64,000 bases of DNA, taken from the NCBI GenBank assembly GCA_964557115.1, contig CAZKYO010000004.1:53892-117891 (forward strand), written 5' to 3'. Of this stretch, positions 19,108-61,852 are shown piece by piece. The notes below the pieces were generated by a model. It was not told where the DNA came from and did no database searches. It was given only the letters and a program-made list of their open reading frames with translations. This stretch comes from an uncultured Gemmatimonadaceae bacterium. GTDB taxonomy: Bacteria > Gemmatimonadota > Gemmatimonadetes > Gemmatimonadales > GWC2-71-9. A program made the position numbers and the translations under genes. How positions within the stretch are numbered: position 1 is the first letter of the stretch; the number at the start of each line of letters is the position of its first letter.

Positions 19108-19172
19108 CCCGGCCTCGCCCGTTCGGGTCCCTCGTGGGTACGATCCTTGGAACGCTCGACCGTGAGGCACCG

Positions 19173-19598
19173 ATGCGCACCCGAATGCTCACCCCGGCCC
19201 TGCTGCTCGCCGCCCTCGCCTGCGACGCCGGCGAACCGACCCGCGCGATCCATCCGGATCGCTTCCCCGTCCCCGGCAGCCACGAGATGGCGATCGGCGA
19301 CTCCGCCCAGCTCGAGGGCACGCCGTACACCCTCGAGATGCTCTCGCTCGAGACGGACTCCCGCTGCCCGGCCGAGGCTGACTGCATCTGGGCCGGCGAG
19401 GTGAAGGTCCGCGCCGCCCTGCACGCCGATCCCGGCCTCGGCATCCCCGATATGGAACTCACCCTCGGCACCACCTCGGCGACGGTGGCGGGGGGCGTCT
19501 CGCTCCAGATCACAAGTGTCGCGCCGGTGGCCCACGCCGGCGTCGCCATCCCGGCGAGCGCGTACCGGCTCACGATCACCGCGGACCAGCCGCAGTGA
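19173..19598 (+). CDS. hypothetical lipoprotein
   Basis: Start at MRTRMLTPALLLAALACDAG (lipobox), small beta-rich protein. Stop overlaps the next start (GTGA). Confidence 0.55.
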   Translation: MRTRMLTPALLLAALACDAGEPTRAIHPDRFPVPGSHEMAIGDSAQLEGTPYTLEMLSLETDSRCPAEADCIWAGEVKVRAALHADPGLGIPDMELTLGTTSATVAGGVSLQITSVAPVAHAGVAIPASAYRLTITADQPQ

Positions 19599-19975
19599 CC
19601 GCCGACCCGCGCCGCCCGAGCGCCGTGCACCAGGTCGCCCTCACGGTCGAGGACCTCGAACGCGCCGTCGCCTTCTACCGCGACGTCGTGGGACTCACCT
19701 ACCTGTTCAGCGCACCACCCGGCATGGCGTTCTTCGACTGCGGCGGGACGCGCATCCTCCTCGGCACCCGGGCCGCCGGCGGCGACGATCCGCCGCGGTC
19801 GATGGTGTACTACCGGACCGACGACATCCAGGATGCCGCCGGCCGACTGGCCGCCAACGGTGTCGACGTCGGCAAGGGGCCCGCGATGATCGCGAACGTC
19901 GGCGGGCGCGAGATCTGGCTGCTGGAGTTCCGCGATTCGGAAGGGAATCCCGTCGCCCTGATGATGGAGCGGTAG
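19595..19975 (+). CDS. VOC/glyoxalase family protein
   Basis: 126-aa ORF. VHQVALTVEDLERAVAFYRDVVGL ... EIWLLEFRDSEGNPVALM is the typical VOC pattern. Confidence 0.8.
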   Translation: MTADPRRPSAVHQVALTVEDLERAVAFYRDVVGLTYLFSAPPGMAFFDCGGTRILLGTRAAGGDDPPRSMVYYRTDDIQDAAGRLAANGVDVGKGPAMIANVGGREIWLLEFRDSEGNPVALMMER

Positions 19976-19979
19976 CGCA

Positions 19980-20083
19980 GCGATACGAGACGCGCGACAC
20001 GCGACCGGCCCCGGAGAAACACTCAATGTTCTCCGGGGCCGGTCGCGTGTCACCTGTCGCCTGTCGCGCGTCGCCTGTCGCGG
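19980..20083. repeat. heptad-arm palindromic element (GCGACAG family) with a perfect 23-bp inner stem; likely bidirectional terminator
   Basis: gacacgcgaccggccccggagaa (19996-20018) pairs perfectly with ttctccggggccggtcgcgtgtc (20029-20051), 10-nt loop. The outer right arm is a run of six tandem GTCGCNN heptads (20041-20082): gtcgcgt, gtcacct, gtcgcct, gtcgcgc, gtcgcct, gtcgcgg. Fills a convergent intergenic gap. Confidence 0.85.
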
Positions 20084-29866: not shown

Positions 29867-29915
29867 CCTTCTCTGTATTCTGTTCTCTGTTCTCCGTTCT
29901 CTGTCCTCTCCTCTA
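29867..29915. repeat. solo tract of 7 tandem heptamers (GTTCTCT type), pyrimidine-rich on the + strand
   Basis: ccttctc tgtattc tgttctc tgttctc cgttctc tgtcctc tcctcta. Ends 10 nt before the DUF72 ATG. No inverted partner in the 90 nt to the left. Confidence 0.8.
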
Positions 29916-29924
29916 TCCTTAGGC

Positions 29925-39543: not shown

Positions 39544-39551
39544 AAGACGGA

Positions 39552-39655
39552 GATTGGTGATTCGCGAAGGGTGAAGGGGAAGGCGGCTCCATGCGGAATC
39601 GCCTTCCCCTTCACCCTTCACCCTTCACCGTTTCCGGGTCACCCTTCACCACTCC
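39552..39655. repeat. heptad-arm palindromic element (GGTGAAG/CTTCACC family); likely bidirectional terminator
   Basis: Perfect 20-bp stem gaagggtgaaggggaaggcg (39566-39585) / cgccttccccttcacccttc (39600-39619), 14-nt loop. The right side continues cttcacc cttcacc ... cacccttcacc. Fills a convergent gap and abuts the stop at 39656. Confidence 0.85.
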
Positions 39656-42201: not shown

Positions 42202-42882
42202 CTAGTTGTTCGGCCGCCGTGAGCGCCCCTGCTGCCCGGGCGCCCTGGCCGCGCCGCGGCCGTTGCCGTTGCCGCGGCTCACCGTAGCGGGGCGATTGTC
42301 GCGGCGGTCGTCCCGCCGATCGACGCGATTGTCCTGTCGAGTGTCGCGCCGGTCGATGCGGTTGTCCTGCCGCACGTCGCGCCGGTCAATGCGGTTGTCC
42401 TGCCGCACGTCACGCCGGTCGGTCCGGTTGTCCTGCCGCACGTCGCGGCGATCGTTCCGCCAGTCGTCGCGCCAGCCACCGCGATCGTCGCGGTAGACCC
42501 GCCACTCGTTCCGCTCGTAGCGGCTGCGGTAGCGATCCCAGTCGCGATCCCTCGGCGCGAAGAAGAAGCGGTCGCGATAACGGTAGACCACGACCGGCCG
42601 GGCGTTGCGGAACGGCCGCTCGTAGTAGTGGCCGCCGAACAGGTACAGCGTCACCGGCCGCCAGTAGGCGGCGGTATAGCGCCAGTCGCCGTAGCCGCCG
42701 GGGTAACCGACCACCACGACCTCGGGCCCGTAGTCGTAACGATCATCCGGCACCACCACGACGCGGTCGCGGCCCCCGATCCCGAACGGACCGATGTGGA
42801 TGTCGGCGGAAATCTGCGCGGCGGCCGGGGCGGCGCCGAGGGCAACCAGGATGGGTACGGCAACGAACGTCTTGGCACGCAT
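42202..42882 (-). CDS. secreted protein with Arg/Asp-rich 11-aa tandem repeats
   Basis: Start at MRAKTFVAVPILVALGAAPAAAQ. Y/R/W-rich core, then DRRDVRQDNRx repeated 5 times. Confidence 0.65.
   Translation of the reverse strand: MRAKTFVAVPILVALGAAPAAAQISADIHIGPFGIGGRDRVVVVPDDRYDYGPEVVVVGYPGGYGDWRYTAAYWRPVTLYLFGGHYYERPFRNARPVVVYRYRDRFFFAPRDRDWDRYRSRYERNEWRVYRDDRGGWRDDWRNDRRDVRQDNRTDRRDVRQDNRIDRRDVRQDNRIDRRDTRQDNRVDRRDDRRDNRPATVSRGNGNGRGAARAPGQQGRSRRPNN
42292..42456. repeat. 33-bp tandem repeat, 5 units, within a CDS
   Basis: Units gcgattgtcgcggcggtcgtcccgccgatcgac / gcgattgtcctgtcgagtgtcgcgccggtcgat / gcggttgtcctgccgcacgtcgcgccggtcaat / gcggttgtcctgccgcacgtcacgccggtcggt / ccggttgtcctgccgcacgtcgcggcgatcgtt. 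Confidence 0.85.
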
Positions 42883-43096
42883 GGAAAGCCTCCTGTCTAG
42901 TCGGGTCCTGCTGCTCACCCCGGCAAGGAGCGAGCATCATGCCATGCCGCAAGTCATTGCCACAAAACGACTTGCCAAGAGCGGCCCCGGGGCCCGGCGT
43001 CCTCCAGGATGGACACTTGTCCACCGCGGCCCGGCGCCGGTGATAACTTGTGGCCCCGTCGCGAGACGCGATCAACGACAGCAGGGAGCGGGCTTC

Positions 43097-43588
43097 GTGG
43101 GCACCTTCCGCGTGTCGGTCAGCAAGGACTACCTGGTCTTCGCGGCCGCGCACTTCATCACCTTCCGTGGCCACGCCTGCGAGGCGCTGCACGGCCACAA
43201 CTACCGCCTCGGCATCACCGTCGAGGGGCCGATCGATCCCGAGTCGTTCTTCGTGGTCGATTTCGCGATCCTGAAGCAGGCGGTGCGGAAGTACGTGGAG
43301 CTGATGGACCATCGCGTCTTGCTGCCCACCGGCAACGCCAAGCTCCGGTTCGAGGAGCGGGACGACGCGGTGTTCGTCGACTACCTCGGCAGCCCGGCCT
43401 ACCGCTTTCCGAGGCGCGACTGCGCGATGCTCCCGGTCAGCAACACCACCGCGGAGATGATCGCCGAATGGGTGGCCACCAGCGTCGCACGCGACCTCGG
43501 CGACGAGGGCGCGCGGCTCACCTGGCTGGAACTCGAGGTCGAGGAGTCCTTCGGCCAGTCGGCGACCTACCGCCACCAGCTGGGCTAG
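43097..43588 (+). CDS. 6-pyruvoyl-tetrahydropterin synthase / QueD family protein
   Basis: GTG start (VGTFRVSV). AAHFI...CEALHGHNYRL ... VDF motifs of the PTPS fold. Confidence 0.8.
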   Translation: MGTFRVSVSKDYLVFAAAHFITFRGHACEALHGHNYRLGITVEGPIDPESFFVVDFAILKQAVRKYVELMDHRVLLPTGNAKLRFEERDDAVFVDYLGSPAYRFPRRDCAMLPVSNTTAEMIAEWVATSVARDLGDEGARLTWLELEVEESFGQSATYRHQLG

Positions 43589-43620
43589 CGGAGAGCGAAG
43601 CCGCCGCCCGAGGAGCAGGC

Positions 43621-43974
43621 ATGAAGACAAACGAACCGGTCCACCAGGGCGAGGCGCTCACCCGCCACCTCGCCGACCTCCCTGGCTGGGAGGTCGAGGA
43701 CGGCTGGCTCAAGCGCACCTACCGCACCGATGGCTGGCGGACGACGATGCTGGTGACCAACGCGATCGCGTTCCTCGCCGAGGCGGCGAATCATCACCCC
43801 GACCTCGAGGTACACTGGCCCAGCGTGGTCGTGCGGCTGCAGACCCACTCGGCCGGCGGGATCACCGACAAGGACCTCCAGCTCGCCGGCGAGATCGAGC
43901 GACTGGTGCGCTGGCAGCCGACCGGCGGCTTCCCGGGCCTCGAGGGACAGCCCGACGGCTGGGTGAAGCCCTGA
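43621..43974 (+). CDS. phhB: pterin-4a-carbinolamine dehydratase
   Basis: 117-aa ORF. GW......L.R.Y ... AEAANHHPDLEVHWPSVVVRLQTHSAGGITDKDLQLA is the PCD/DCoH signature. Confidence 0.9.
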   Translation: MKTNEPVHQGEALTRHLADLPGWEVEDGWLKRTYRTDGWRTTMLVTNAIAFLAEAANHHPDLEVHWPSVVVRLQTHSAGGITDKDLQLAGEIERLVRWQPTGGFPGLEGQPDGWVKP

Positions 43975-43993
43975 CCGACCGGGCAATCGGCGC

Positions 43994-45382
43994 GTGAGCG
44001 TCACCCGCCTCCTCCTCGAGGACGCTCCCGACCCGCTCGACGCCCTCGAGCGGGTCGCGACGCTTCGACGCCCGGTGCTGCTCGACGGAGCCGCCGAGCG
44101 CGATGGTTTGGGGCGCTGGAGCTTCCTGAGCGCCGAGCCGGTGGAGCTCCTCGAGGGCGGTCCCGACGACTGGCCGCGGATCCGTGACGCGGTGCGCGCC
44201 TCGATCGACCCGGCGATCCACGACCCGGCGGGACCGCCGCTGCAGGGCGGCTGGATCGGCTGGCTGGGCTACGAACTTGGCCGGGCGTTCGACCGGCAGC
44301 CGGTCGCCGCCGCGCCCTCGTCCGCGCTGCCCGACGTCTCGCTGGGCCGCTACGACTGGTGCATGGCATGGGACCACGCCAGCGGCGAGGCCTGGCTGGT
44401 GGCGGAGAACGCGGAGATCGCGGCCGCGCGACTGGCGATGCTGGAGACTCGAGATTCGCGATCGGCGATTCGTGACCTGGCGGCGGTGACTCGTGTCGAC
44501 TCGGATGCCCAGAGCGGTCCGCAAAACCTCGATTCGCGAATCGCGAATCGCGAATCTCCTGCTTCGGACTTCACGCCCGACGAGTACCGCGCCGCCGTCC
44601 AGTCGGTGATCGACCACGTGCTGGCGGGCGACATCTTCCAGGCGAACCTCTCGCAGCAGTGGCGCCGGCCCTTCGCCGGCCCCGCGCTCGGCGCCTATTG
44701 CGAGATGCGCCGGCGCGCGCCCGGCTCGCACGCGGCGTACCTCGATGCCGGCGGCGCGCAGCTGCTCAGCATGTCGCCCGAACTCTTCCTGCGATACGCG
44801 CCGACCGACCGGCGACTCGAGGCCCGACCGATCAAGGGCACCCGTCCGCGCGACGACGACCCGACCCTCGATGCGGCGCTCGCCGGCGAACTGCTGGTGA
44901 GCGAGAAGGATCGCGCCGAGAACGTGATGATCGTGGATCTGCTCCGGAACGACCTCAACCGGGTCGCCGTGCCGGGAAGCGTCGTGGTGCCATCGCTCTG
45001 CCGGCTCGAGTCGTACGCCGCGGTGCACCACCTGGTCTCGATCGTGACCGGCACGCTCCGGCAGGACTGCGACGCGCTCGATGCGATCGCGGCGATGTTC
45101 CCGGGGGGCTCGATCACCGGCGCGCCCAAGCTGCGCGCGATGGAGATCATCGCCGGACTCGAACGCCATCGGCGCGGACCCTACTGCGGCGCGATCGGAT
45201 GGATCGGGCGCGACGGGGCGGCCGAATTCAACGTGGCGATCCGCACCGTCACGCTCGCGGACGGCGAGGCGATCGTCCCGGCCGGCGGCGGGATCACCGC
45301 CCTCTCCGAGCCGGAGGCGGAACACCGCGAGGCGGTGACCAAGGCCGCGGCGCTGCTCGCCGCGCTGGAGGCGGCCGGATGA
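43994..45382 (+). CDS. pabB: aminodeoxychorismate synthase component I
   Basis: GTG start. Chorismate-binding domain motifs GDIFQANLSQ, SPELFL, IKGTRPR, EKDRAENVMIVDLLRNDL, FPGGSITGAPK, RGPYCGAIGW. No TrpE-type N-terminal Trp-feedback motif noticed, and it is adjacent to pabA. Confidence 0.8.
   Translation: MSVTRLLLEDAPDPLDALERVATLRRPVLLDGAAERDGLGRWSFLSAEPVELLEGGPDDWPRIRDAVRASIDPAIHDPAGPPLQGGWIGWLGYELGRAFDRQPVAAAPSSALPDVSLGRYDWCMAWDHASGEAWLVAENAEIAAARLAMLETRDSRSAIRDLAAVTRVDSDAQSGPQNLDSRIANRESPASDFTPDEYRAAVQSVIDHVLAGDIFQANLSQQWRRPFAGPALGAYCEMRRRAPGSHAAYLDAGGAQLLSMSPELFLRYAPTDRRLEARPIKGTRPRDDDPTLDAALAGELLVSEKDRAENVMIVDLLRNDLNRVAVPGSVVVPSLCRLESYAAVHHLVSIVTGTLRQDCDALDAIAAMFPGGSITGAPKLRAMEIIAGLERHRRGPYCGAIGWIGRDGAAEFNVAIRTVTLADGEAIVPAGGGITALSEPEAEHREAVTKAAALLAALEAAG
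44443..44559. repeat. 117-nt heptad-arm palindromic element (ATTCGCG family) inside the pabB reading frame
   Basis: Left ggagactcgagattcgcgatcggcgattcgtgac; right tcgattcgcgaatcgcgaatcgcgaatctcc (reverse complement ggagattcgcgattcgcgattcgcgaatcga). Translated as ETRDSRSAIRD...LDSRIANRES. Confidence 0.85.
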
Positions 45383-45948
45383 TCCTGCTCCTCGACCACG
45401 ACGACTCGTTCGTGCACACGCTGGCGGCGTACCTCGCCGTGCTGGGCGCCGAGCCGGTGGTGCGGCGCGACGCCGGGATCACGCTGGAGGAAATCGTGGC
45501 GATGCGACCCGCGGGCATCATCCTCTCGCCCGGACCGGGCACCCCCGAGGCGTGTGCGCTTGGCGTCGCGGTCGTGCGGACCCTGGGTGCCACGACGCCG
45601 ATCCTCGGCGTGTGCCTCGGCCACCAGGTGATCGCCCACGCGTTGGGGGCGACGGTCGCCCGCGCCTCGCATCCTCGCCATGGGCGCACGTCGCGGATCC
45701 GCCACGACGGCGAGGCGGTCTACCGAGGCCTGCCGGATCCGCTGGAGGCGACCCGCTACCACTCCCTGTCGGTGGTGGCGGACTCGGTGCCCGACGCGCT
45801 CCGCGTCACCTCGCGCGCGGACGACGGCGAGGTGATGGGGGTGCGACACCGCGAGTGGCCGGTGGAAGGCGTGCAGTTCCACCCCGAGTCGGTGCTGACG
45901 ACCCACGGGGCGGCGATGATCGCGAACTGGCTTCACCCCGCCCGCTAG
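45379..45948 (+). CDS. pabA: aminodeoxychorismate/anthranilate synthase component II (glutamine amidotransferase)
   Basis: ATGA overlap with pabB. ILLLDHDDSFVHTL, GVCLGHQ catalytic Cys, VQFHPES. Confidence 0.9.
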   Translation: MILLLDHDDSFVHTLAAYLAVLGAEPVVRRDAGITLEEIVAMRPAGIILSPGPGTPEACALGVAVVRTLGATTPILGVCLGHQVIAHALGATVARASHPRHGRTSRIRHDGEAVYRGLPDPLEATRYHSLSVVADSVPDALRVTSRADDGEVMGVRHREWPVEGVQFHPESVLTTHGAAMIANWLHPAR

Positions 45949-47063
45949 TCGCCGAACGAGATCCCGAGGTGGCGGGCGGTCATGATGATCCCGCTATCGA
46001 GCGGGACCGACTTCATCTTGCCCACCACGTCGGTGAGCGGCACGCGCGTGACGACCGGCGGGTCGTAGGCGACCATGGTCCCGAAGTCGCCCTCGGCGAT
46101 CGCGCGGATCGCCGCCGAGCCGAATCGCAGCGCCAGCAGCCGATCGAAGGTGGTCGGCGTGCCGCCGCGCTGCAGATGACCGAGCACCAGCGTGCGTGTC
46201 TCCTTGCCGGTCCGCTGCGCGATCGCGTCGCCGACCTGCTCGCCGATGCCGCCGAGGCGCGCGTTGGCGCCGGCCTGCCGCCGCTCGCGCAGCACCACCT
46301 CGCCGTCGATCGGCCGGGCTCCCTCGGCCACCACGACGATGGCGAAGTGACGCCCCGACCGCTCGCGCTCGCGGATCTTCTCGCAGACCTTCTCGATGTC
46401 GAACGGGATCTCGGGGATGAGGATCACGTCGGCGGTCGCCGAGATGCCGCTGTGCAGCGCGATCCAGCCGGCGTGGCGCCCCATCAGCTCCACCACCATC
46501 ACCCGGTCGTGCGCCTCGGCGGTGGAGTGGAGCTTGTCGAGGGCCTCGGTCGCGGTGGACACGGCGGTGTCGAAGCCGAAGGTCGTCTCGGTGCCGCAGA
46601 CGTCGTTGTCGATCGTCTTGGGGACGCCGACCACCTTGAGCCCCTGCTCCGCGAGGCGGGCGGCGATCCCGAGGGAGCCGTCGCCGCCGATGGTGACCAG
46701 GGCGTCGATCCGCTCCCGCCGGAACGCGGCGAGCAGCTCGCCGGAGCGGTCGCGTTCGTGGACGGTGCCGTCGGGCAGGGTCTCCGGCCACCGGAACGGG
46801 TCGCCCCGGTTGGTCGTGCCGAGGATCGTGCCGCCGACATGGGTGATGCCGCGGACGTGTTCGGGGCCGAGCGGCACGACGCCGCTGCCGTCATAGAGGC
46901 CGTGGAAGCCGCGGCGGATGCCCACGCAGCTCCAGCCCCGGTCGTGGGCGGTAAGGACGACGGCCCGGATGACCGCATTGAGGCCGGGGGCGTCGCCGCC
47001 GCCTGTCGAGATCGCGATGCGCACGTTGGCGGGAATCGTACTCACTATCTTCGGGTTATGCAT
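45945..47063 (-). CDS. pfkA: ATP-dependent 6-phosphofructokinase
   Basis: Start at MHNPKIV (47063). RIAISTGGGDAPGLN, GGDGSL, PKTIDNDV, MGRHAGW, GHLQRGG motifs. Confidence 0.9.
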   Translation of the reverse strand: MHNPKIVSTIPANVRIAISTGGGDAPGLNAVIRAVVLTAHDRGWSCVGIRRGFHGLYDGSGVVPLGPEHVRGITHVGGTILGTTNRGDPFRWPETLPDGTVHERDRSGELLAAFRRERIDALVTIGGDGSLGIAARLAEQGLKVVGVPKTIDNDVCGTETTFGFDTAVSTATEALDKLHSTAEAHDRVMVVELMGRHAGWIALHSGISATADVILIPEIPFDIEKVCEKIRERERSGRHFAIVVVAEGARPIDGEVVLRERRQAGANARLGGIGEQVGDAIAQRTGKETRTLVLGHLQRGGTPTTFDRLLALRFGSAAIRAIAEGDFGTMVAYDPPVVTRVPLTDVVGKMKSVPLDSGIIMTARHLGISFGD

Positions 47064-51327: not shown

Positions 51328-52931
51328 GCGAGCAGGACATGATGGACGAGGCGATCGTCGCGCTGCAGCGGGAATACCTGCGCGAGGCGCCCGCGCGCCT
51401 GGCCGAGCTCCGGAAGGACCTCACGGCGTTCCGGGCCGGCGAGGCCGACGCCCTCGAGTCGCTCCGGGTCCGCTTCCATCGGCTGGCCGGCTCCGGCGGC
51501 TCCTACGGCTTCCCTCGCGTGACCGAGATCGCGCGGGCGCAGGAGCAGCGCATCCTGACGCCGCCGGCGCCGACGCCCCAGGAGGCCGACCAGTTCGAGG
51601 AGGCGATCGACGCCCTCAAGGAAGCGCTCGACGCGACGATCCCGGATCCGGCCACGCCGCCCACCGCCGGCGGCAAGCTCCCCGCCTTCGGCTGGCGCAC
51701 CACGCTGCTGATGCCGGACTCGCCGCTGCGGCAGGAGCTGATCCGGGCGCTCGACGAGGTCGGCTTCATGGTCACCGTGCACGAGACCGACGTCGACCCG
51801 TGGAGCGTCCCGGCGACCGAGCGTCCCGACCTCGTCGTGGTCGGGACCGATCTCGGCGACGACCCGCTGACGCTGGCCCGCTACTGGGCGGCCGCGACGC
51901 CGGACCGTCCCCGCGCCGTGGTCATCGCCGACCCCGTCGAGCGGTACGACCGGCTGCGCACCGCGGCGGCCGGCGTGGACGCCGTGTTCGGTCCGTCGTC
52001 GCTGCCGCGCGGCCTGACGCAGTACGCCAGGGCGCTGGTGCAGATCGGCGCGCCGCCGGCCAACGTCGTGGTCGTCGAGGACGACCCGGCGCAGGCGCAG
52101 CTCTACGCCACCTGGCTCAACCAGATCAATGCCCGGGTCTCGGTGTGCGGCAGCGCCCAGGTCGCGCGCGACACGCTCATGAACGAGACGCCGGACCTCG
52201 TGCTCCTGGACGTGGACCTGCCGGACGTGGACGGCTACGCCCTCGCCCGGATGATGCGGCAGGAACCGCGACTCGCGCTGGTGCCGATTGTCTTCCTCAC
52301 CGCGCGGCAGACGGTGGCCGACGAGATGGAGGGACTCCGCGCCGGCGGCGACGACTTCCTGATCAAGCCGGTCGAGCAGAACCACCTGCTCCAGGTGGTG
52401 CTCACGCGCACCGAGCGGGGCCGCCGGATCCGGGAGCTGGTGCATCGCGACGGGCTGACCGGGGTGCTCAACCACGCGACCCTGATGGCGGAGCTGGAGC
52501 ACGCGATCGCCTACGCCGGCCGGCACGGCGAGCCGCTGTCCTTCCTGATGCTCGACCTCGACCACTTCAAGCGCGTCAACGACACCTTCGGCCACCTGGT
52601 CGGCGACCAGGTGCTGATGCACGTGGCCCGCGTCTTCCGGAAGGGCGTGCGGAACTCCGACCTCCTCGGCCGCTACGGCGGCGAGGAGTTCGGGATCATC
52701 CTGCGCCGCTGCCCGCCGGGCAACGGCCGCGTCATCGCCGAGAAGCTGCGCACGATGCTGGCGGAGTCGCCGATGGCGCCGGCCGGCGGTCCCGAGATCG
52801 CGCTGCGCGCCAGCATCGGCGTGGCGGCGTTCCCGGGCTCCGGCCGCACCGCGACCGAGGTCGCCGCGGCGGCCGACCTGGCGCTCTACCGCGCCAAGAG
52901 CGCGGGCCGCGACCGGGTGGAGATGGCCTGA
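51324..52931 (+). CDS. Hpt - degenerate receiver - receiver - GGDEF diguanylate cyclase
   Basis: Hpt motif FHRLAGSGGSYGF; receiver LVLLDVDLPDVDG...DFLIKP; GGDEF domain with RYGGEEFG active site and DxLT start (DGLTGVLN). 4-nt overlap with the TrmB gene. Confidence 0.85.
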   Translation: MSEQDMMDEAIVALQREYLREAPARLAELRKDLTAFRAGEADALESLRVRFHRLAGSGGSYGFPRVTEIARAQEQRILTPPAPTPQEADQFEEAIDALKEALDATIPDPATPPTAGGKLPAFGWRTTLLMPDSPLRQELIRALDEVGFMVTVHETDVDPWSVPATERPDLVVVGTDLGDDPLTLARYWAAATPDRPRAVVIADPVERYDRLRTAAAGVDAVFGPSSLPRGLTQYARALVQIGAPPANVVVVEDDPAQAQLYATWLNQINARVSVCGSAQVARDTLMNETPDLVLLDVDLPDVDGYALARMMRQEPRLALVPIVFLTARQTVADEMEGLRAGGDDFLIKPVEQNHLLQVVLTRTERGRRIRELVHRDGLTGVLNHATLMAELEHAIAYAGRHGEPLSFLMLDLDHFKRVNDTFGHLVGDQVLMHVARVFRKGVRNSDLLGRYGGEEFGIILRRCPPGNGRVIAEKLRTMLAESPMAPAGGPEIALRASIGVAAFPGSGRTATEVAAAADLALYRAKSAGRDRVEMA

Positions 52932-53013
52932 ATCGAGGTTTGCGAATCGAGACCGGCGAATCGAGGGCCAGGCACCGGCGCCTCGAATCTCCAGTCTCGA
53001 CTCGCGAATCTCC
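52930..53013. repeat. palindromic element, ATTCGCG-related, 14-nt period in the left arm
   Basis: gaatcgaggtttgc gaatcgagaccggc gaatcgaggg ... cctcgaatctccagtctcgactcgcgaatctcc. Fills the convergent gap between the GGDEF gene and lon. Confidence 0.7.
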
Positions 53014-53015
53014 TC

Positions 53016-55556
<2,541 letters not shown>

Positions 55557-55628
55557 CGGTCAGGCTCCTTTCGGCCCCAGGCCGAGCCGGCGCGACCGAA
55601 GCATCGCGCCATCAGGGAGACCCCAAGG

Positions 55629-55643
55629 GCATCGCCCGTGCCA
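55629..55643 (-). promoter_or_regulatory. sigma-54-like -24/-12 element upstream of lon (TGGCACG-N4-ATGC)
   Basis: The minus strand reads TGGCACGGGCGATGC, 73 nt upstream of the lon start. It matches TGGCACG-N4-TTGC except for one base. No enhancer-binding protein is seen nearby. Confidence 0.3.
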
Positions 55644-55822
55644 CTTTGGGGGGCCTCTTCCCTGCCGCGCTGGCCGTTCCACCCGCCAACGGGGCACGGG
55701 GTGCCGGGATCGCGGCGGCTTTCCTGCCCCGACGGCAGTGACCCGCGGCACGTTGCTCGCGGCGGCAACTCCGTGCAAATTCGGGGGTTGACCAACCCCT
55801 GCGCCACCTTCACGGGACGCCG

Positions 55823-57826
55823 ATGACCGATTCCGCCCAGTCATCCCTGCCGACGCTCCTCAAGGACGCGCTGGGTGACTCATACACGATCGAGGGAGAG
55901 ATCGGTCGCGGCGGCATGGGTGTCGTCTACCGCGCGCGGGACGAGCGACTCCAGCGTCGCGTCGCGGTGAAGGCCCTCCCTCCCGAGCTCGCCTTCCAGC
56001 GCGAGATCCGCGAGCGGTTCACCCGCGAGGCGCAGACCGCGGCGCGGCTGTCGCATCCGCACATCGTGCCGATCCACGACGTGGGCGAGGGCAACGGCCT
56101 CGTCTACTTCGTGATGGGACTGATCGAGGGTGAGTCGCTCGCCGCCAGGATCCGTCGCCGCGGACGGCTGCCGGCCGAGGAAGCGCGGCGGATCATGAAG
56201 GAGACGGCCGACGCGCTGTCGGCCGCCCACGGCCTCTCGGTGATCCATCGCGACATCAAGCCGGACAACATCCTCCTCGAGGGGACGCGCGGCCGGGTGA
56301 TGGTGACGGACTTCGGCATCGCGAAGGCGCTGTCCTCGACCGGCGGGTCGACGCTCACGAGCGCCGGCATGGCGATCGGGACGCCGTCGTTCATGAGCCC
56401 GGAGCAGGCCGCGGGCGAGAAGGAGATCGACGGGCGCAGCGACCTGTACTCGCTCGGCATCGTGGCCTACCAGATGCTCTCGGGCGAGCTGCCCTTCTCG
56501 GCGCCGACCGTCGCCGGCATCCTGATGAAGCACATCACCGAGCCGGCACCGCTGCTGCACGAGCGCTTCAAGGACGTGCCCGAGGACCTGTCGCTGGCCG
56601 TCTCGCGCTGCCTCGAGAAGGATCCCGAGAATCGCTGGCCGAGCGCCGACGCGCTGCGTCGTGCCCTGGAGAGCCGCAACGTCGCCGGCTATCGCCCCAC
56701 GGGGCTCGGCTGGCGCGCGGCGACGCTGCCCAAGGGCGCCCCGACCGGCCGCGGGACGCGGGCACCGACCGAGCGCACCGCCCGACGGCCGCTCGGCGAG
56801 CGGCAGCCGCGACCGCTGGTGGACCGCACCGGCACGCGCCCGCGCGACACGCTGCAGGGCCGCGGCAGTCTCCGCGACCGCGGCGCCTCGCGCAACCTCC
56901 CCGACCGGCCCCGCAGCCCGGGCCAGCTGGCCCGCGAGGCCGCGCGCCAGGCTCGGGAGGCGCGCGAGGCCCGGCGCCTGTCGCGGCGCGGCAAGAAGGA
57001 CGACGTCGTCCTGCCGGAGACCGGCGAACCGAAGGTGGTCCGGCAGGCGCGCGCGGAGTTCGCCCGGATCGCCGCCGTGGGAGGCGGGTTGTTCATGGTG
57101 AACATGTTCACCGGCCTCGATTCGCCCTGGTTCCTGTTCCCGGTCGCGATCATGTCGTTCGGCGCGTTCAAGCGCTACGCCGACCTCTGGCAGGCCGGCT
57201 ATTCCTGGCGCGACATCCTCCACCGCCCGGACGCGCCGGACGCGATCGCCTCGTCGCCCGCGAAGCGGATCAAGGGCGTGCGCCAGCTGCCGGCCCCGCG
57301 GGCCGACGAACTGGGCACGCACTATGCCCGGATGGCCGAGGTCCATAGCGACCGCATCGCCGTGCTGGGGCTGTTCGAGAAGCTCGGCGAGGCGGACCGC
57401 GCGATGGTGCCTGACCTGATCGAGACCGTCGACAACCTGTACCAGAAGGCGCTCGACCTCGGCACCGCGCTCCACGCGATGGACTCCTCGGTCACGCCCG
57501 ACGAGCTGCAGCGCATCGACCAGCAGCTCGAGGCGCTCCGTGCCCGCGACCAGAGCGAGGAGCGCGACCGGCAGGTGTCGATGCTCGAGCGGCAGCGCCG
57601 CTCGTGCCAGGAGCTGGTCGACAAGCGCGACATGATGGCCGAGCGGTTCACCAGCTGCGCCCTGGCGCTGCAGAACCTCCGCTTCGAGGTGCTGCGGCTC
57701 CGCGAGAAGGGGATCGGGGCGGTCGGCAGCGAGCTGACCAGCGCCACCCAGCAGGCGCGCGCGCTGTCACGCGACATCGACCACGCGATCGGCGCGGCGT
57801 CGGAGCTCAGGGAGAGCCTGGGGTAG
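55823..57826 (+). CDS. Hanks-type Ser/Thr protein kinase with C-terminal 2-TM and coiled-coil region
   Basis: GRGGMGVVY, VAVK, HRDIKPDNILL, DFGIAK, SPEQ. After a Pro/Arg-rich linker come two TM helices (AAVGGGLFMVNMF, WFLFPVAIMSFGAF) and a helical tail. Confidence 0.9.
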   Translation: MTDSAQSSLPTLLKDALGDSYTIEGEIGRGGMGVVYRARDERLQRRVAVKALPPELAFQREIRERFTREAQTAARLSHPHIVPIHDVGEGNGLVYFVMGLIEGESLAARIRRRGRLPAEEARRIMKETADALSAAHGLSVIHRDIKPDNILLEGTRGRVMVTDFGIAKALSSTGGSTLTSAGMAIGTPSFMSPEQAAGEKEIDGRSDLYSLGIVAYQMLSGELPFSAPTVAGILMKHITEPAPLLHERFKDVPEDLSLAVSRCLEKDPENRWPSADALRRALESRNVAGYRPTGLGWRAATLPKGAPTGRGTRAPTERTARRPLGERQPRPLVDRTGTRPRDTLQGRGSLRDRGASRNLPDRPRSPGQLAREAARQAREAREARRLSRRGKKDDVVLPETGEPKVVRQARAEFARIAAVGGGLFMVNMFTGLDSPWFLFPVAIMSFGAFKRYADLWQAGYSWRDILHRPDAPDAIASSPAKRIKGVRQLPAPRADELGTHYARMAEVHSDRIAVLGLFEKLGEADRAMVPDLIETVDNLYQKALDLGTALHAMDSSVTPDELQRIDQQLEALRARDQSEERDRQVSMLERQRRSCQELVDKRDMMAERFTSCALALQNLRFEVLRLREKGIGAVGSELTSATQQARALSRDIDHAIGAASELRESLG

Positions 57827-57827
57827 C

Positions 57828-57925
57828 GCGACAAGCGACCCGCGACAGGCGGCAGGTGCAAGCGAAAAGGCCGGCTCCCCTCGGGGACGCCGGCCTTCTG
57901 CGCATGTCGCCCGTCGCGTGTCGCT
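57828..57925. repeat. heptad-arm palindromic element (GCGACAG family) with inner hairpin; likely bidirectional terminator
   Basis: gcgacaa gcgaccc gcgacag gcggcag gtgcaag - aaggccggc tcccc tc gggga c gccggcctt - ctgcgca tgtcgcc cgtcgcg tgtcgct. The last heptad overlaps the E1 stop codon, and TTTT follows the hairpin on the minus strand. Confidence 0.85.
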
Positions 57926-60041
57926 AGAACGCCAGGATCTCGTCCATCGCGCGGCGCAGGGACTCGACCTGCGGCAGGATCACGTCCTCGAGCTCCGGCG
58001 CGTAGGCGACGAAGGTGTCGGTGGCGGCGACGCGGCGCACCGGCGCGTCGAGCCAGGCGAAGTGGTCGTCGGCGATGCGGGCCGCGATCTCGGCGCCGTA
58101 GCCCCACGACAGCGAGTCCTCGTAGGCGACGATCACCCGGTTGGTCTTGGCCACCGACGCGCCGATCGTCTCCCAGTCCACCGGATTGAGCGAGCGGAGG
58201 TCGATCACCTCGACCCGCCGGCCGGTCTCCTCGGCGAGCTGCCGCGCCGCCTGCACCGCGCGCTGCACCACGGCGCCGTAGGTGATCACCGTCGCGGCGT
58301 CGCCCTCGTGCACCACCTTCGCCTTGCCGAACGGCACCATGAAGTTGGGCCCCGGATAGGCGCCCTTGTTGTAGGTCTGGCGATAGAGGTGCTTGTGCTC
58401 CAGGAACAGCACCGGGTCCTCGGAGCGGATCGCGGTGCGGAGCAGCCCGTTGGCGTCGAGGGCGGTGGCCGGACAGACGACCCGGAGCCCGGGCACGCCG
58501 GTGAAGATCGCGGCGCCGGTCTGCGAGTGGTACACCGAGCCGCCCTTGAGGTAGCCGCCGTAGGTGACGCGGACGACGACCGGCGCGCTGAAGGCGTTGT
58601 TCGACCGCCAGCGCATCAGCGCCAGCTCGTCGCGCAGCTGCATGTAGGCGGGCCAGATGTAGTCGAAGAACTGGATCTCGACCACCGGCTTCATGCCGCG
58701 GGTGGCCAGGCCGATGGCCCGGCCGACGATGTTCGCCTCGGCAAGCGGCGAGTTGTAGACGCGGCGGCCGCCGAACTGCTTCTGCAGCCCCCACGTCACC
58801 TTGAAGACGCCGCCCTTCCCCTTGACCGCCTCGAGGTTCCCCTCGCGCGAGCAGTCGGCCACGTCCTCGCCGAAGACCACGATCCGCGGGTCGCGGGCCA
58901 TCTCGTCCTTGAGGCACGCGTTGAGCAGGTCGACCATGGTGGTCGGCTCGCCGCTCGACTGCGGGTCGTCCTCGGTGTCGAACTGCTCGGCGGTCGGATC
59001 GACGTCGGGCGAGTAGACGAACCGCTCGATCGTCTCCGGGCCGGGCTGCGGCGAGGCGAGCGCCACCTCGGTCGCGACGGTGACCTCGTCGTCGGCCTGC
59101 TGCCGGATCAGCTCCAGCTCCGACTCGGTCGCGATGCCCTGGTCGACCAGGTAGCGCGGGAAGGTCACCAGCGGATCGCGGGCCGCGTCGGCGTCGCGCT
59201 CGGTGGTCGGGCGGTAGTGGACCTCGTCGTCGGACAGCGAGTGCGAGTACGGCCGGATGACGTGCGCGTGCACCAGCGCCGGCCCCTTCCGCTGCCGGGC
59301 GTAGTCGTGCGCCTTGAGCATCGCCTCGTGCGAGGCGAGCGGGTCGCACCCGTCGACCTCCTGCACGAACAGCCCCGGGAACGAGGCGACGAGCTTGCTG
59401 ATCGAGCCGCCGGCGGTGTTGACCTCGACCGGGACCGAGATCGCGTAGCCGTTGTCCTCGATCAGGTAGACGACCGGCAGCTTGAGGTTGCAGGCCGAGT
59501 TGAGCGATTCCCAGAACTCGCCCTCGCTGGTGGTGCCGTCGCCCGAGGTGCAGAGCACCACCTCGTCGCCGCGGCTCAGGTCGGCCAGCTCCATGGCGCC
59601 CTCGGACCGCATCCCGGTCTCCGCCGCCCCGACCGCCTGGAGGAACTGGGTCCCCGTCGGCGACGACGTCGAGACGATGTTGAGGTCGCGGTGGCCCCAG
59701 TGCGACGGCATCTGGCGGCCGCCGGAGTTGGGATCATCCGCCGCCGCGACGGCCGAGAGGAGCTGCTCGGTGGCGGTCATCCCGAGGCCGAGGCAGAGCG
59801 CCCGGTCGCGGTAGTAGAGGTAGAACCAGTCGTGGCCGGCGCGGAACACCTTCGCGGTCGCGGCCAGCACCGCCTCGTGGCCGGCGCCGGAGATCTGGAA
59901 GAAGATCCGGTTCTGGCGCTTGAGCTGGATTTCCTTGTCATCCAGCCGACGCGACAGGTACATCACCCGGTAGAGGTCGAGCAGCTCCGACTTGTCGAGT
60001 CGGGTGGCCGCCTTGGAGCGGGATGCGGTGCGGGTAGCCAT
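57924..60041 (-). CDS. fused alpha/beta E1 component of a 2-oxoacid dehydrogenase (TPP-dependent)
   Basis: Start at MATRTASRS (60041). The alpha part has the TPP motif [10 protein letters not shown]; the beta part has FGEDV..... GGVF ... transketolase-like pyrimidine and C-terminal domains. The upstream track extension only translates the palindromic element. Confidence 0.9.
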
Positions 60042-60083
60042 GCCCGGAAAATGGCCCGGCAGGAGGGGTTCGGGAAGGGCGGC

Positions 60084-60188
60084 TGAATGGTGAATGGTGA
60101 ACGGTGAATGGGGGTGCCCCCGTCGGTCCGGAGCCCTCCCGGCGACCGGGCCGACCCCCCATTCACCATTCACGATTCACCATTCTCC
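60084..60188. repeat. heptad-arm palindromic element (GGTGAAT/ATTCACC family)
   Basis: tgaatgg tgaatgg tgaacgg tgaatgg - 47-nt GC-rich spacer with inner inverted repeat gtcggtccgg/ccgggccgac - ccattca ccattca cgattca ccattct. Lies between the amidohydrolase stop and the E1 start (same strand). Confidence 0.9.
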
Positions 60189-61852
60189 TACTGATAGACC
60201 ACCTTCCCGCCGACGATCGTCGCCAGGATCCCGGTGGTCCGGATCGAGTCGGGGGGAATCGTCCGGATGTCGTGATCGAGCACGGTGATGTCGGCGGCCA
60301 TCCCGGCACGCAGCACACCGCGGCGCGCCTCGCCGAAGGTGCCGTAGGCATTCGCAGCGGTGTAGGCGTGCAGCGCCTCGTCGACGGTGATCTTCTGCTC
60401 CGGATACCAGCCGCCGGGATTCTTCCCGTCGAGCGTCTCCCGCGTGACGGCGGCCCAGATGCCGAGCAGCGGGTCGATCGGCGCGACGTACCAGTCGGAG
60501 CCGAACATCAACCGGGCGCCCGAGTCGAGCAGCGAGCGGAAGGCATAGGTGCCGCGGAGCTGGGGTTCGCGGATCCGCTTGGCGGCCCAGCGGCCGTCGT
60601 CGACCGCGTGATACGGCTGCATCGAGGGCAGCACGCCCAGCGCCGCGAAGCGCGGGATGTCCTGCTGGCGGAGATGCTGGGCGTGCTCGATCCGGAAGCG
60701 CCGGTCGCGGGCGCCGTGCGCCGTGAACACCGAGTCGTAGATGTCGAGCAGCAGCGCGTTGGCGCGGTCGCCGATCGCGTGCACCACGACCTGCAAGCCG
60801 GCCGAGTCGGCGGCGCCGATCCAGGCGCGGAGCGAGTCCTCCGGGGTCACCAGCAGGCCGTGACTCGACGGCATGTCGAGGTACGGGTCGAAGAAGAGCG
60901 CCGTGGTGGAACCGAGCGAGCCGTCGACGAACCCCTTGACGCCGGCGAGGCGGATCCAGTCGTCGCCGGGGCCGGCGCTGTCCCGCGTCGCCGCCACCGA
61001 TCGCCATCCCCCGAGCGGCGGGTAGAAGGAGACCCGCACCGTCTGCATCCCCGCGGCCCGGAGGCGGCGGGTGGCGCCGATCTCCTGTCCGGCCGAGACG
61101 GCCGACACCGCGACGATGCCCTTCCGGTTGGCGTAGCGCATGGCCGCGACGACGAACGAGTCGGCCTGCGCGTCGGTCGGGGCCGGGATCGCGGCGTAGA
61201 GCGGCCCCATCGCCTCGTCCTTGAAGATCCCGGTCAGTTCGCCGGCGGCGTCGCGGACGATCGTCCCGCCCGGGATCTCGCGCAGCGAGCGGTCGAGATG
61301 CGCGGCCTCGAGCGCCTTGGTGTTGGCGAGTGCCATGTGGCCGTCGAGGCGCTGGATGAAGACGGGGTTGTCGGGGGTCACCGAGTCGATCCAGTGCCGG
61401 GTCGGCAGTTCGCCTCCCCAATTCTCGTGGTCCCAGACGCCGCCCAGGATCCACTCTCCCGGCTGCCGGGCCCTGGCGAACTCGGCGATCCGCCGGATGA
61501 ACTCCGCCGGCGTCTTCGCATCCCGCAGGTCAACCGAGGAGAGGCCGATCCCTCCATCGAGCAGATGGACGTGCCCATCGGCGAACCCGGGGACGATCAA
61601 TCCCGAGGAGGTGGCAATCACCTCGGTCTTCGAACCGACCAATGCCGCGATCGTGACGCTGTCGCCGATCGCAAGGATCGAATCCCCGGCGATCGCCATC
61701 GCGGCGGCTTCCGGCTGGGCCGAGTCGCCGGTCCAGATCCTACCGAACAGGGCGATCGAGGCGCGGGGGCCACCCCCCTGGCAGGCCAGGGTGCCGATGA
61801 GGAGGAGCGCCGGGACGAGCCGCCAGCGGGCGGCACGCGAGCCGCCCCTCAC
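60188..61852 (-). CDS. amidohydrolase family (YtcJ-like, amidohydrolase 3) lipoprotein
   Basis: GTG start, lipobox LLLIGTLACQGG, metal site GFADGHVHLLDGG, later VHAIGD and a C-terminal D for the binuclear site. Confidence 0.85.
   Translation of the reverse strand: MRGGSRAARWRLVPALLLIGTLACQGGGPRASIALFGRIWTGDSAQPEAAAMAIAGDSILAIGDSVTIAALVGSKTEVIATSSGLIVPGFADGHVHLLDGGIGLSSVDLRDAKTPAEFIRRIAEFARARQPGEWILGGVWDHENWGGELPTRHWIDSVTPDNPVFIQRLDGHMALANTKALEAAHLDRSLREIPGGTIVRDAAGELTGIFKDEAMGPLYAAIPAPTDAQADSFVVAAMRYANRKGIVAVSAVSAGQEIGATRRLRAAGMQTVRVSFYPPLGGWRSVAATRDSAGPGDDWIRLAGVKGFVDGSLGSTTALFFDPYLDMPSSHGLLVTPEDSLRAWIGAADSAGLQVVVHAIGDRANALLLDIYDSVFTAHGARDRRFRIEHAQHLRQQDIPRFAALGVLPSMQPYHAVDDGRWAAKRIREPQLRGTYAFRSLLDSGARLMFGSDWYVAPIDPLLGIWAAVTRETLDGKNPGGWYPEQKITVDEALHAYTAANAYGTFGEARRGVLRAGMAADITVLDHDIRTIPPDSIRTTGILATIVGGKVVYQ

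Follow-up and report, generated by a model that had tools for sequence, protein, structure and literature searches.

Heptamer-array palindromes in a Gemmatimonadota genome: an element translated in frame in the interdomain linker of PabB

The stretch of DNA analysed here, 64,000 nucleotides (nt) from a contig of an uncultured Gemmatimonadaceae bacterium (Gemmatimonadota, approximately 71% GC) and referred to below as the window, carries within pabB, the gene for component I of aminodeoxychorismate synthase, a palindromic element that is built of tandem 7-nt units (heptads) and translated in frame as a part of the enzyme. The source genome was examined over these 64 kb, while its relatives are represented by short metagenomic contigs. 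The features of the locus, with positions counted along the window, are the following.

43588-43974: open reading frame (ORF) upstream of pabB, matching the Pterin_4a gene (pterin metabolism) of the syntenic locus L082
43994-45382, plus strand: pabB, aminodeoxychorismate synthase component I, 462 amino acids (aa), host of the element; GC content at third codon positions 0.88; assigned from Pfam, E. coli PabB and AlphaFold
44443-44559, no strand: heptad palindromic element as bounded in an earlier note on this DNA, 117 nt, encoding residues ~151-188, a predicted disordered linker loop
44443-44476, no strand: left arm, GGAGA followed by the heptads CTCGAGA, TTCGCGA, TCGGCGA and TTCGTGA and a final C, i.e. 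approximately four heptads with a G-N-G-A core; signature matches at 44444-44468 and 44451-44475
44477-44528, no strand: spacer or loop, 52 nt of unique sequence with weak internal pairing; 4 of 50 sites differ from the 90% identical relative
44529-44559, no strand: right arm, TCGAT, three times TCGCGAA and then TCTCC, equivalent to (GCGAATC)x3 and complementary to the left arm; from Tandem Repeats Finder (TRF) and the signature
45379-45948, plus strand: pabA, the partner glutamine amidotransferase; overlaps the stop of pabB with its start and that of PFK with its stop, the latter in CTAG

Judging by its domains and relatives, the ORF at 43994-45382 is a genuine PabB. Namely, Pfam places Anth_synt_I_N (PF04715) at residues 13-133 and Chorismate_bind (PF00425) at residues 196-450 (3e-82), the best solved structural relative is E. 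coli PabB (1k0e, 4e-75), and the catalytic lysine K281 of the PIKGT motif aligns with K274 of the E. coli enzyme. What is more, a 90% identical relative (P0001, locus L081), which keeps the element, differs from the gene in 41 non-synonymous and 96 synonymous codons when the element is set aside, so that pabB is under purifying selection. The earlier note had proposed that the catalytic C-terminal part continues in the same frame, and this is indeed the case, with the Chorismate_bind domain and the PIKGT lysine intact. The same note had the element interrupt the N-terminal domain; instead, it lies in the linker between the N-terminal and the chorismate-binding domains. The alignment with E. 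coli PabB falls into two blocks, query residues 68-153 and 191-459, with the element occupying the interval that separates them. In an AlphaFold2 model of PabB based on 121 sequences (mean predicted local distance difference test score, pLDDT, 92; predicted template modelling score, pTM, 0.90), residues ~151-190 are the sole low-pLDDT stretch, with values of 62, 51, 45 and 61 in successive 10-residue blocks of residues 151-190 and values below 50 for residues 169-182. Since this stretch lies between confident domains, the element would encode a disordered excursion or, in other words, is predicted to form a disordered loop between two well-folded domains. The linker peptide is hydrophilic, charged and rich in Arg, Asp and Ser, and has a surface location.

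Direct re-reading of 44443-44559 bore out the sequence, the arms and the translation that had been given for the element. The left arm (44443-44476) reads GGAGACTCGAGATTCGCGATCGGCGATTCGTGAC and the right arm (44529-44559) reads TCGATTCGCGAATCGCGAATCGCGAATCTCC, the latter being detected by TRF at 44530-44556 with a period of 7 and 3.9 copies. The unit type is GAGAYTC/GCGATTC on the left and the complementary GCGAATC on the right, and the two arms form an imperfect palindrome, in which 44451-44475 and 44534-44558 are 88% complementary and a longer pairing of 48 nt reaches 75%. Folded as RNA, the element gives -63.9 kcal/mol, with z = -3.7 relative to dinucleotide shuffles. In the frame of the host ORF it is translated as ...L-ETRDSRSAIRDLAAVTRVDSDAQSGPQNLDSRIANRES-P..., codons E151 to S188 lying fully within it, as its first base is the third of codon L150 and its last base the second of codon P189. 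The length of exactly 39 codons, given in the earlier note, depends on the boundaries. Namely, it follows from choosing the GGAGA...TCTCC ends, while the thermodynamic hairpin covers 44436-44566 (131 nt), and no empty PabB site that would fix the boundaries was seen among the relatives examined. Nor can one speak of a clean 39-codon insert, as the nearest relatives without this element (~63% identity) are just 17 aa shorter and have another heptad palindrome at the same place. As for the ends themselves, a GGAGA start or a TCTCC(T) end recurs in the window (44443-44447 and 44555-44559; 39550; 52920; 53006-53013; 17337-17344; 60182-60190). These ends resemble a Shine-Dalgarno sequence and its complement, and at 60176-60190 (minus strand) and 17305 the motif adjoins start codons.

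The palindrome and its heptad periodicity are non-random. With at most one mismatch, GATTCGCGAATC occurs 4 times in the window, against 0.17 occurrences expected. The signature (GNGANNN)3GNGA, in which 12 bases are specified, occurs 19 times against an expectation of 0.05; three of these matches belong to the pabB copy, and all 19 fall inside the elements catalogued below. In addition, we used a palindrome detector that looks for tandem arrays of a period p whose reverse complement recurs no more than 150 nt away. In the window it found 6 strict heptad-array palindromes at period 7 and none at periods 5, 6 and 8-11, and it found none in 20 Markov shuffles.

Is it the nucleotide sequence of the element or the peptide that is being conserved? 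When the window is compared with L081, 4 of 42 third codon positions differ in the element as opposed to 108 of 421 in the flanks (p = 0.02), the second codon positions that differ number 4 of 41 as opposed to 13 of 422, and the ratio of non-synonymous to synonymous codons is 5:3 in the element versus the 41:96 given above. In a cluster of four PabB orthologs, variable third positions number 2 of 25 in the element and 102 of 175 in the flanking sequence, the left arm is invariant (0/32), and variable columns amount to 7 of 74 in the element versus 159 of 527 in the flanks (Fisher p = 8e-5). In these tests, which rest on two and four orthologous copies, the constraint is on nucleotides and not on the peptide. 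Selection on mRNA pairing was considered and found no support: on the sense strand, the mismatches between arms comprise 13 G:U and 19 A:C pairs (p = 0.38, the orthologous copies counted not being independent), i.e. there is no G:U excess. Given this lack of a sense-strand G:U bias, the constraint looks strand-symmetric and appears to act at the level of DNA.

We searched contigs with full-length PabB (matches dominated by universal catalytic motifs; at most 50% identity among the matches listed) and metagenomes with a clade-specific N-terminal alignment (at most 49% identity among the matches listed; 0.75 Mb of DNA), and extracted the linker from 150 PabB loci. The relatives at ~63% identity mentioned above (P0002 to P0004; syntenic locus L082), which do not have the ATTCGCG element, carry a linker palindrome of the type GCGACAG x4 ... 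CTGTCGC, translated as MRQATGDGRLPGDGVPPLTRRLSPA. In one Gemmatimonadota subclade, all inserts lie at the same codon boundary (...RLA / insert / APSYPV...) and the hairpins are unrelated; within that subclade no empty insert site was seen. The linker palindromes and arrays found are the following.

L097, L099, L102 and L111: PabB-linker palindrome of GCGGGAT/GCGAGAT heptads
L100 and L110: PabB-linker palindrome of GGGAAGC/GGGAAAC heptads
L144, L089 and L112: PabB-linker palindrome of octad arrays
L147, L086 and others: unique perfect 23-bp palindrome in the PabB linker, first kind
L113 and others: unique perfect 23-bp palindrome in the PabB linker, second kind
L101 and L122: purely direct arrays in the PabB linker

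The metagenomic loci (754 kb) contain 15 strict heptad palindromes, and 6 of these are in the PabB linker, corresponding to ~2 independent events. Linker hairpins with z < -3 are present in 27% of Gemmatimonadota-type PabB linkers versus ~5% in other phyla, and the majority of Gemmatimonadota PabB linkers have no significant hairpin. The presence of unrelated palindromes in one linker means that hairpin sites persist while their sequence turns over. The linker palindromes with 8-nt units are found in L144 (877-1074 of the extract), L089 (10169-10366) and L112 (2124-2354) and read GGACGGCC, GGGTAGCC and GCAGCGGG. The detector found 9 period-8 pairs in the metagenomic loci, from which it follows that, within the phylum, units are not always 7 nt long. 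Finally, a planctomycete PabB (L006, 2183-2353, from a Planctomyces metagenome-assembled genome, MAG) has a perfect 27-bp palindrome, GGGGCAGGTTTTCAACCTGC...GCAGGTTGAAAACCTGCCCC, in frame in its linker, so tolerance of palindromes by the linker is not exclusive to the Gemmatimonadota.

The pabB copy is one of approximately 10 heptad elements in the 64 kb, 7 of which lie between genes or at gene ends and 3 within genes. Copies have approximately 4 + 4 units, and 9-10 of them are paired. The family members other than the pabB copy, none of which is assigned a strand, are listed first, and the unit types, with the start positions of their copies, thereafter.

10937-10969: single unpaired array of the GAGAYTC type, directly upstream of an imuB-like start (ATG 10969)
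13418-13485: GAGATTC type, intergenic
14671-14753: GGCGACA/G units, in frame in DnaE2/ImuC (14102-17257, plus strand), encoding about GEGRQATGDGRTDAPVACRVSPVAP
17245-17344: GAGATTC/GCGATTC units, spanning two genes (from the detector and from reading)
19980-20083: GCGACAC/GCGACAG units with a perfect central hairpin, between convergent genes
39550-39637: GTGAAGG units with a central hairpin, starting GGAGATTGGTGATTC, between convergent genes
52930-53013: GAATCGAG / GAGATTC type, between the convergent stops of a GGDEF-protein gene and Lon
54401-54515: GTGAATG/GTGATTG units, in frame in Lon (53016-55556, minus strand)
57826-57927: GCGACAN units with a terminator-like hairpin, AAGGCCGGC...GCCGGCCTT, between convergent genes (E1 dehydrogenase/kinase junction)
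60078-60190: TGAATGG units, between two minus-strand genes (amidohydrolase stop, E1 dehydrogenase start)
Unit type GAGAYTC / GCGATTC: 10937, 13418, 17245, 44443, 52930
Unit type GCGACAG: 14671, 19980, 57826
Unit type GTGAATG / GTGAAGG: 39550, 54401, 60078

The usual intergenic build, in which arrays extend an ordinary terminator-like hairpin outwards, is an array, a unique GC-rich terminator-like hairpin and a complementary array, often located between convergent genes with stop codons in or beside the arms. Spacers are unrelated among the window copies, and the arms vary in the number and composition of their units and share the unit type only, with no full-length consensus. The element at 17245-17344 shows how these repeats can reshape genes, as the DnaE2 stop (TGA 17255-17257) comes from its left arm, and the start region (ATG 17305) and signal-peptide n-region of an S15 peptidase are encoded by its right arm. 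Rfam 15 gave no matches at gathering score over the whole window. A search for canonical terminators gave no terminator-like site in 43500-46200 and none coinciding with elements in 52500-60500, and consensus scans placed a U-tract terminator or a sigma-70 promoter at no element.

Two other translated copies deserve closer attention. The earlier note had counted pabB as the third housekeeping gene with such an insert; Lon and a DnaE-type polymerase do carry in-frame elements, but the polymerase is the error-prone DnaE2/ImuC, as indicated by the ImuB-like gene that precedes it and by the name 'error-prone DNA polymerase' that several sources give to its orthologs. On these grounds it is not a housekeeping replicase, and the word housekeeping fits only in part. 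Ortholog alignments show that both sites are hypervariable, with 38-95 residues between fixed anchors in the Lon linker and 40-102 residues between anchors in DnaE2, and that both are short and element-free in some relatives. In particular, the DnaE2 site is element-free in P0268, P0270, P0271 and P0278, and other relatives have different heptad-type peptides there. The C-terminal tails of DnaE2 (P0242, P0244, P0246, P0247) are likewise hypervariable and contain heptad-type peptides, e.g. ATGEGRGAKGDGRARPN, which suggests that elements at the 3' end may repeatedly rewrite this C-terminus. The ImuB-like Y-family polymerase gene (IMS domains) and the DnaE2 gene that follows it at 10969-17257 look like an SOS mutasome cassette; heptad arrays are found at its start (10937-10969), possibly in imuB (12161-12195), in dnaE2 (14671-14753) and at its end (17245-17344). 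In L082, Lon (minus strand of the locus) is annotated as a pair of genes, one at 19163-20686 and the other from 20683 onward. The split (site 20560-20720) is due to a frame shift and an in-frame TGA in a degenerate heptad element of the GGTGAAG type, which occupies the linker site where the Lon of the window has its element, and reflects either true disruption of the gene or an indel introduced into the repeat by assembly.

The suggestion that the elements either prefer in-frame lengths or are seen in frame since only such copies survive can be narrowed down to its second half. Taking the span of the dominant hairpin as element length, the copies that are certainly in frame measure 84, 131, 124, 81, 98, 85, 137 and 131 nt and are not confined to multiples of 3. 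The intergenic copies, with three PabB copies on short contigs that were first classed as intergenic excluded, are distributed over the remainders modulo 3 as 8:5:4, showing no bias in a test that is weak owing to fuzzy ends and to the lack of an empty site fixing them. Furthermore, since each 7-nt unit moves the reading frame by one position and an element's 4 + 4 units amount to 56 nt, multiples of three are not favoured by the architecture. In contrast to length, stop codons do leave a trace, which attests directly to selection. Namely, the Lon arm reads GGTGAAT, CGTCAAT, GGTGAAT and GGTGAAT on the coding strand, and the sole deviant heptad, CGTCAAT, falls exactly where the canonical unit would put a TGA in frame, a change that is uncompensated in the other arm. 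The ATTCGCG and GCGACAG units have no stop in any of the six frames, and the G-N-G-A core encodes peptides rich in Arg, Asp, Glu, Gly and Ser, which are suited to disordered loops. With no preference for in-frame lengths and with a Lon heptad altered where TGA would fall, the copies seen in frame are survivors, and their in-frame state is a survivorship effect, weak as the length test is. Taken together, the observation made in the earlier note was correct and most of its interpretation holds, with the domain placement, the 39-codon insert, the housekeeping polymerase and the length preference as the parts to be abandoned.

The behaviour of the elements over time can be followed at orthologous junctions, using syntenic contigs from closer relatives (Lon 86-88% identity).

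Lon/GGDEF convergent junction in L163: plain terminator-type hairpin only
Lon/GGDEF junction in L165: (AAGATTG)4 / central hairpin / (CAATCTT)4
Lon/GGDEF junction in the window: GAGATTC-type arms
Lon/GGDEF junction in L082: GAGAT[AG]C-type arms round another central hairpin

At this junction the units are related between genomes and homogeneous within each, and the units in the Lon linker are related across these genomes as well (GGTGAAT / GGTGAAG). The E1 dehydrogenase/kinase junction has GCGACAN arms round a hairpin in the window and small hairpins without heptads in L163. Overall, heptad palindromes occur approximately once per 5-10 kb in the window, L082 and L165, and none was found in L163 and L164, which together amount to 42 kb. 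At the pabA/PFK junction of the window (45945-45948), the convergent stops overlap in CTAG, with TAG on both strands and no intergenic DNA. In L082, a 156-nt ACGAGAT heptad palindrome lies between the two stops and alters the C-terminal residues and the stop of PabA. The heptad ACGAGAT also occurs in conserved PFK coding sequence beside the L082 element, a single case that is suggestive of local seeding of units. Taken together, these junctions indicate that pre-existing hairpins acquire arrays, that occupancy of a locus is long-lived, that the units within an array and its two arms evolve in concert, and that the propensity to carry arrays differs by lineage.

What do the units have in common? 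When 35 distinct unit classes (56 arms) are aligned with rotation, a common G-N-G-A core emerges, its G, G and A being present in 29/35, 30/35 and 34/35 classes, with an information content of 4.37 bits versus 3.15 +/- 0.16 in composition-matched controls (maximum 3.66). The density of the signature per 100 kb is 29.7 in the window and ~3-4 in other Gemmatimonadota DNA, while in 740 kb of PabB loci from other phyla there are 0 matches. In these 740 kb, the sole strict heptad palindrome is at 4883-5001 of L043, a gammaproteobacterial MAG, and its AGCAGTC-type units are without the G-N-G-A core. Exact (GCGAATC)3 is present in seven viral contigs, as direct arrays only, a finding that tells nothing about a viral origin.

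Several known classes of repeats invite comparison, although we found no paper on repeats of this kind in the Gemmatimonadota. Rickettsia palindromic elements (RPEs) are selfish palindromic repeats of ~100-150 nt that reside in frame in protein-coding genes. The elements described here are similar to them in being in frame in conserved proteins, tolerated in linkers or at the surface, and in that the same family is found between genes as well. That said, RPE families have a full-length consensus and no tandem 7-nt units, whereas here, in another taxon, the copies have unrelated spacers and share no more than the unit core; the pabB element thus has the in-frame residence without disruption that is typical of RPEs, but not their full-length consensus. 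The closest likeness in architecture is to the heptamer arrays of Xanthomonas, GGGAATC / (GGGANTN)n, and their Nostoc counterpart, the GGGGA(C/T)T repeats of the short tandemly repeated repetitive (STRR) type, which the authors read as G-quadruplex formers (Rehm et al. 2015, PMC4692102). According to the same paper (PMC4692102), the Xanthomonas arrays prefer approximately four units, form 70-75 convergent pairs per genome, are intragenic in 7-11% of cases, show 83% positional conservation between two species and have no association with insertion sequences (IS). The points of likeness (PMC4692102) are tandem 7-nt units with G-x-G-A positions, approximately four units, facing pairs on opposite strands, stem-loop potential, positions conserved between related species, a minority of copies inside ORFs, and a location mostly ~50 bp or less from ORF ends. 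From sequence likeness, the element class appears to share both core and architecture with the Xanthomonas repeats. What differs is that here, in the Gemmatimonadota, there are several unit families per genome, most without G-runs, that the arrays flank a unique central hairpin, and that the intragenic share is high (3 of ~10). In the excerpted Xanthomonas/Nostoc account (PMC4692102), we did not meet in-frame translation, recurrent occupancy of a linker or conservation of nucleotides beyond synonymous sites. Compared with GGGANTN, position 2 of the pabB copy is not G (GCGAATC, GAGATTC) and position 6 is not fixed. The GCGAATC of the window is one base away from GGGAATC and has no G-runs, and four G3 tracts are found only in some other copies (L100, L110). 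Since window units without G-runs keep the same build, G-quadruplex formation cannot explain the common architecture.

The repetitive extragenic palindromic sequences (REPs), together with bacterial interspersed mosaic elements (BIMEs) and the REP doublets forming hairpins (REPINs), are likewise imperfect palindromes of small size and high abundance, found for the most part at 3' gene ends, frequently as inverted pairs, and conserved as families within lineages (PMC3116915, PMC3333891). A REP has a conserved 5' motif of the GTAG type and one short stem of 20-40 nt, is extragenic by definition and co-occurs with a REP-associated tyrosine transposase, RAYT (PMC3116915, PMC3333891), whereas the heptad arms begin with GGAGA/GNGA and have no GTAG motif, and there is no RAYT among the window ORFs scanned. 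With MITEs (miniature inverted-repeat transposable elements), our elements have in common the class of size, inverted repeats at their termini and, on occasion, insertion into genes in frame (PMC10969869), whereas no target-site duplication, conserved interior or related autonomous element was found in the 64-kb window. In particular, target-site duplications were seen neither at the PabB copy nor at the L082 pabA/PFK copy or the PabB-linker copies, and the window ORFs scanned contain no transposase, save a weak phage-integrase fragment. Lastly, heptanucleotide repeats are over-represented in large GC-rich prokaryotic genomes, for which polymerase slippage was proposed in a 2007 survey, as relayed in two later papers (PMC4692102, PMC4679880). 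The 7-nt unit, the high-GC non-pathogen genomes and the proposed origin by slippage are common to both phenomena as so described (PMC4692102, PMC4679880); that work deals with direct arrays in general, whereas here we have complementary pairs round hairpins with a shared core.

How, then, do such elements come about? We lean, if only slightly beyond an even chance, towards the pabB element being one copy of lineage-wide heptamer-array inverted repeats that originate by in-place growth and concerted evolution and not by transposition. Arrays would grow in place at pre-existing hairpins by 7-nt slippage at the hairpin base, the two arms would be kept alike by templated arm-to-arm correction (quasi-palindrome correction), and ectopic copying would restrict the arrays at different loci to a few unit types; these steps of origin and maintenance, i.e. 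slippage, arm correction and ectopic copying, are what we infer. The outcome would be long-lived occupancy of loci with concerted evolution of the units, rather than cut-and-paste transposition, and a strand-symmetric, DNA-level constraint on the G-N-G-A core would keep the sequence more conserved than neutral codon positions. In the PabB copy, the ribosome would simply read through, producing a hydrophilic loop of ~38 aa that the enzyme tolerates and that probably contributes nothing to catalysis, as the structural model suggests, and the in-frame, stop-free state would follow from selection removing any other version from pabB. Several points weigh against this scenario. The same unit type recurs at unlinked loci of one genome (GAGATTC 5, GCGACAG 3-4, GTGAATG 2-3), which local slippage cannot explain, so inter-locus copying or sequence-specific selection must be assumed. 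That one PabB codon boundary holds unrelated palindromes resembles repeated replacement more than gradual drift, and arm-to-arm correction by itself does not predict strong cross-lineage conservation of nucleotides. For seeding from local sequence there is a single anecdote, ACGAGAT beside the L082 pabA/PFK element, and recent recombination could mimic constraint where orthologous copies are as few as 2 and 4 sequences. Moreover, the whole sample amounts to 64 kb from the source genome and to short contigs from metagenomes.

The main rival is a mobile element that is non-autonomous and similar to REPs/REPINs or MITEs, copied by a trans-acting enzyme such as a transposase of the Y1/RAYT or another type; this enzyme would recognise the G-N-G-A arms and insert preferentially into hairpins already present, that of the PabB linker included. 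We consider this rival possible, though unlikely. It better explains the recurrence of units at unlinked loci and the replacement at the PabB site, and it would agree with there being few unit families at many loci in one genome, with presence or absence at syntenic sites (pabA/PFK empty in the window and filled in L082; plain junctions in L163), with a lineage-specific load (0 in the 42 kb of L163/L164 as opposed to the window, L082 and L165), with the swapping of non-homologous palindromes at one PabB codon boundary, with family-level conservation exceeding that of synonymous sites, and with the GGAGA...TCTCC ends shared by several copies. Yet none of the copies examined has a target-site duplication, unrelated spacers and arms that differ in unit number and composition leave no full-length consensus, and orthologous positions keep related units, as expected from vertical descent; in addition, only a weak integrase fragment, and no transposase, is found among the window ORFs scanned, and the Xanthomonas arrays are reported to have no IS association (PMC4692102).

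Alternatively, the hairpin could regulate pabB in cis, in mRNA or DNA, e.g. by making translation pause where the two domains meet, by attenuation within the gene or as a site for RNase. This would account for the richness of Gemmatimonadota linkers in strong hairpins (27% versus ~5%), for their location at one codon boundary and for nucleotide conservation beyond synonymous sites. However, significant hairpins are missing from most PabB linkers of the Gemmatimonadota, elements of this kind are also present in unrelated genes and at many intergenic sites, the mismatches show no sense-strand G:U bias, neither a U-tract terminator nor an Rfam family is associated with the element, and the hairpins are non-homologous between lineages, unlike what compensatory evolution of one helix would give; all in all, we regard a cis-acting role as very unlikely. 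If it were the linker peptide itself that is selected, the repetitiveness of DNA would be a by-product, which would fit a hydrophilic peptide in a surface linker. This is contradicted by the higher non-synonymous to synonymous ratio in the element (5:3) than in the flanks (41:96), by the third positions being the most conserved, by identical units giving other peptides in other frames at other loci, and by the same arrays lying between genes too, so that we give selection on the peptide hardly any credence and consider it effectively refuted by the codon-position pattern. Even less probable in our opinion is a G-quadruplex-forming repeat, as proposed for the Xanthomonas and Nostoc arrays (PMC4692102). 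The preference for four units is common to both, and L100 and L110 (GGGAAGC GGGAAAC x2) do have four G3 tracts, but the GCGAATC, GAGATTC, GTGAATG and GCGACAG units have no G-runs and yet form arms of approximately four units with the same architecture.

Going beyond local growth and concerted evolution, one can imagine, as a rather doubtful generalization, that heptamer-array palindromes in Xanthomonas and cyanobacteria as well are the footprint of a sequence-directed process acting on DNA hairpins, which is G-N-G-A-specific, strand-symmetric and lineage-specific and proceeds in steps of 7-8 nt. An enzyme or repair pathway would extend, rewrite and homogenise stems wherever a hairpin is tolerated, essential genes included, and in one version the inverted arrays would be oriented like Chi-type signals flanking a break-prone palindrome. 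If true, this would account for the long-noted excess of heptanucleotide repeats in GC-rich genomes of large size and would turn protein linkers like the one in PabB into its readable record. The abundance of heptanucleotide repeats in large GC-rich bacterial genomes has been a standing question since 2007, and the only detailed study found, that on Xanthomonas and Nostoc, invokes G-quadruplexes. This explanation cannot be general, since most Gemmatimonadota elements cannot form G-quadruplexes and nevertheless have the same architecture and core. By analogy with the systems discussed above, heptameric inverted-repeat arrays as such, and in-frame palindromic repeats of the kind seen as Rickettsia RPEs, can be regarded as already known. 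What is distinctive here is the occurrence of unrelated palindromes at one linker, the conservation of nucleotides beyond that of synonymous sites, and a G-N-G-A core shared across phyla. The translated copies in PabB, Lon and DnaE2 amount to a natural experiment, in which codon positions separate DNA-level from protein-level constraint, and the contrast between lineages with elements (window, L082, L165) and without them (L163, L164) offers a route to the responsible gene by phylogenetic profiling. Annotation is affected too, as the elements give rise to low-complexity inserts specific to a lineage, to new C-termini and start regions and, at times, to genes that appear split.

Some further repeats and one unusual region of the window are worth recording. 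At 29869-29919, a direct unpaired TTCTCTG array of ~6 copies lies directly upstream of a candidate start at 29925, and the complement of its unit, GAGAACA, fits the G-N-G-A core. A 33-nt tandem repeat of 4.4 copies at 42309-42454, which can also be read with a 66-nt period, lies in an ORF (42202-42918, minus strand) that has a signal-peptide-like N-terminus, Arg/Asp-rich RRDVRQDNRxD repeats and no Pfam match. Finally, a patch of lower GC content at 8001-10514 (0.62 versus ~0.71) contains an ORF with a RibD_C domain and, at 9954-10514, the weak phage-integrase fragment referred to above, and may be the remnant of an integrated element.

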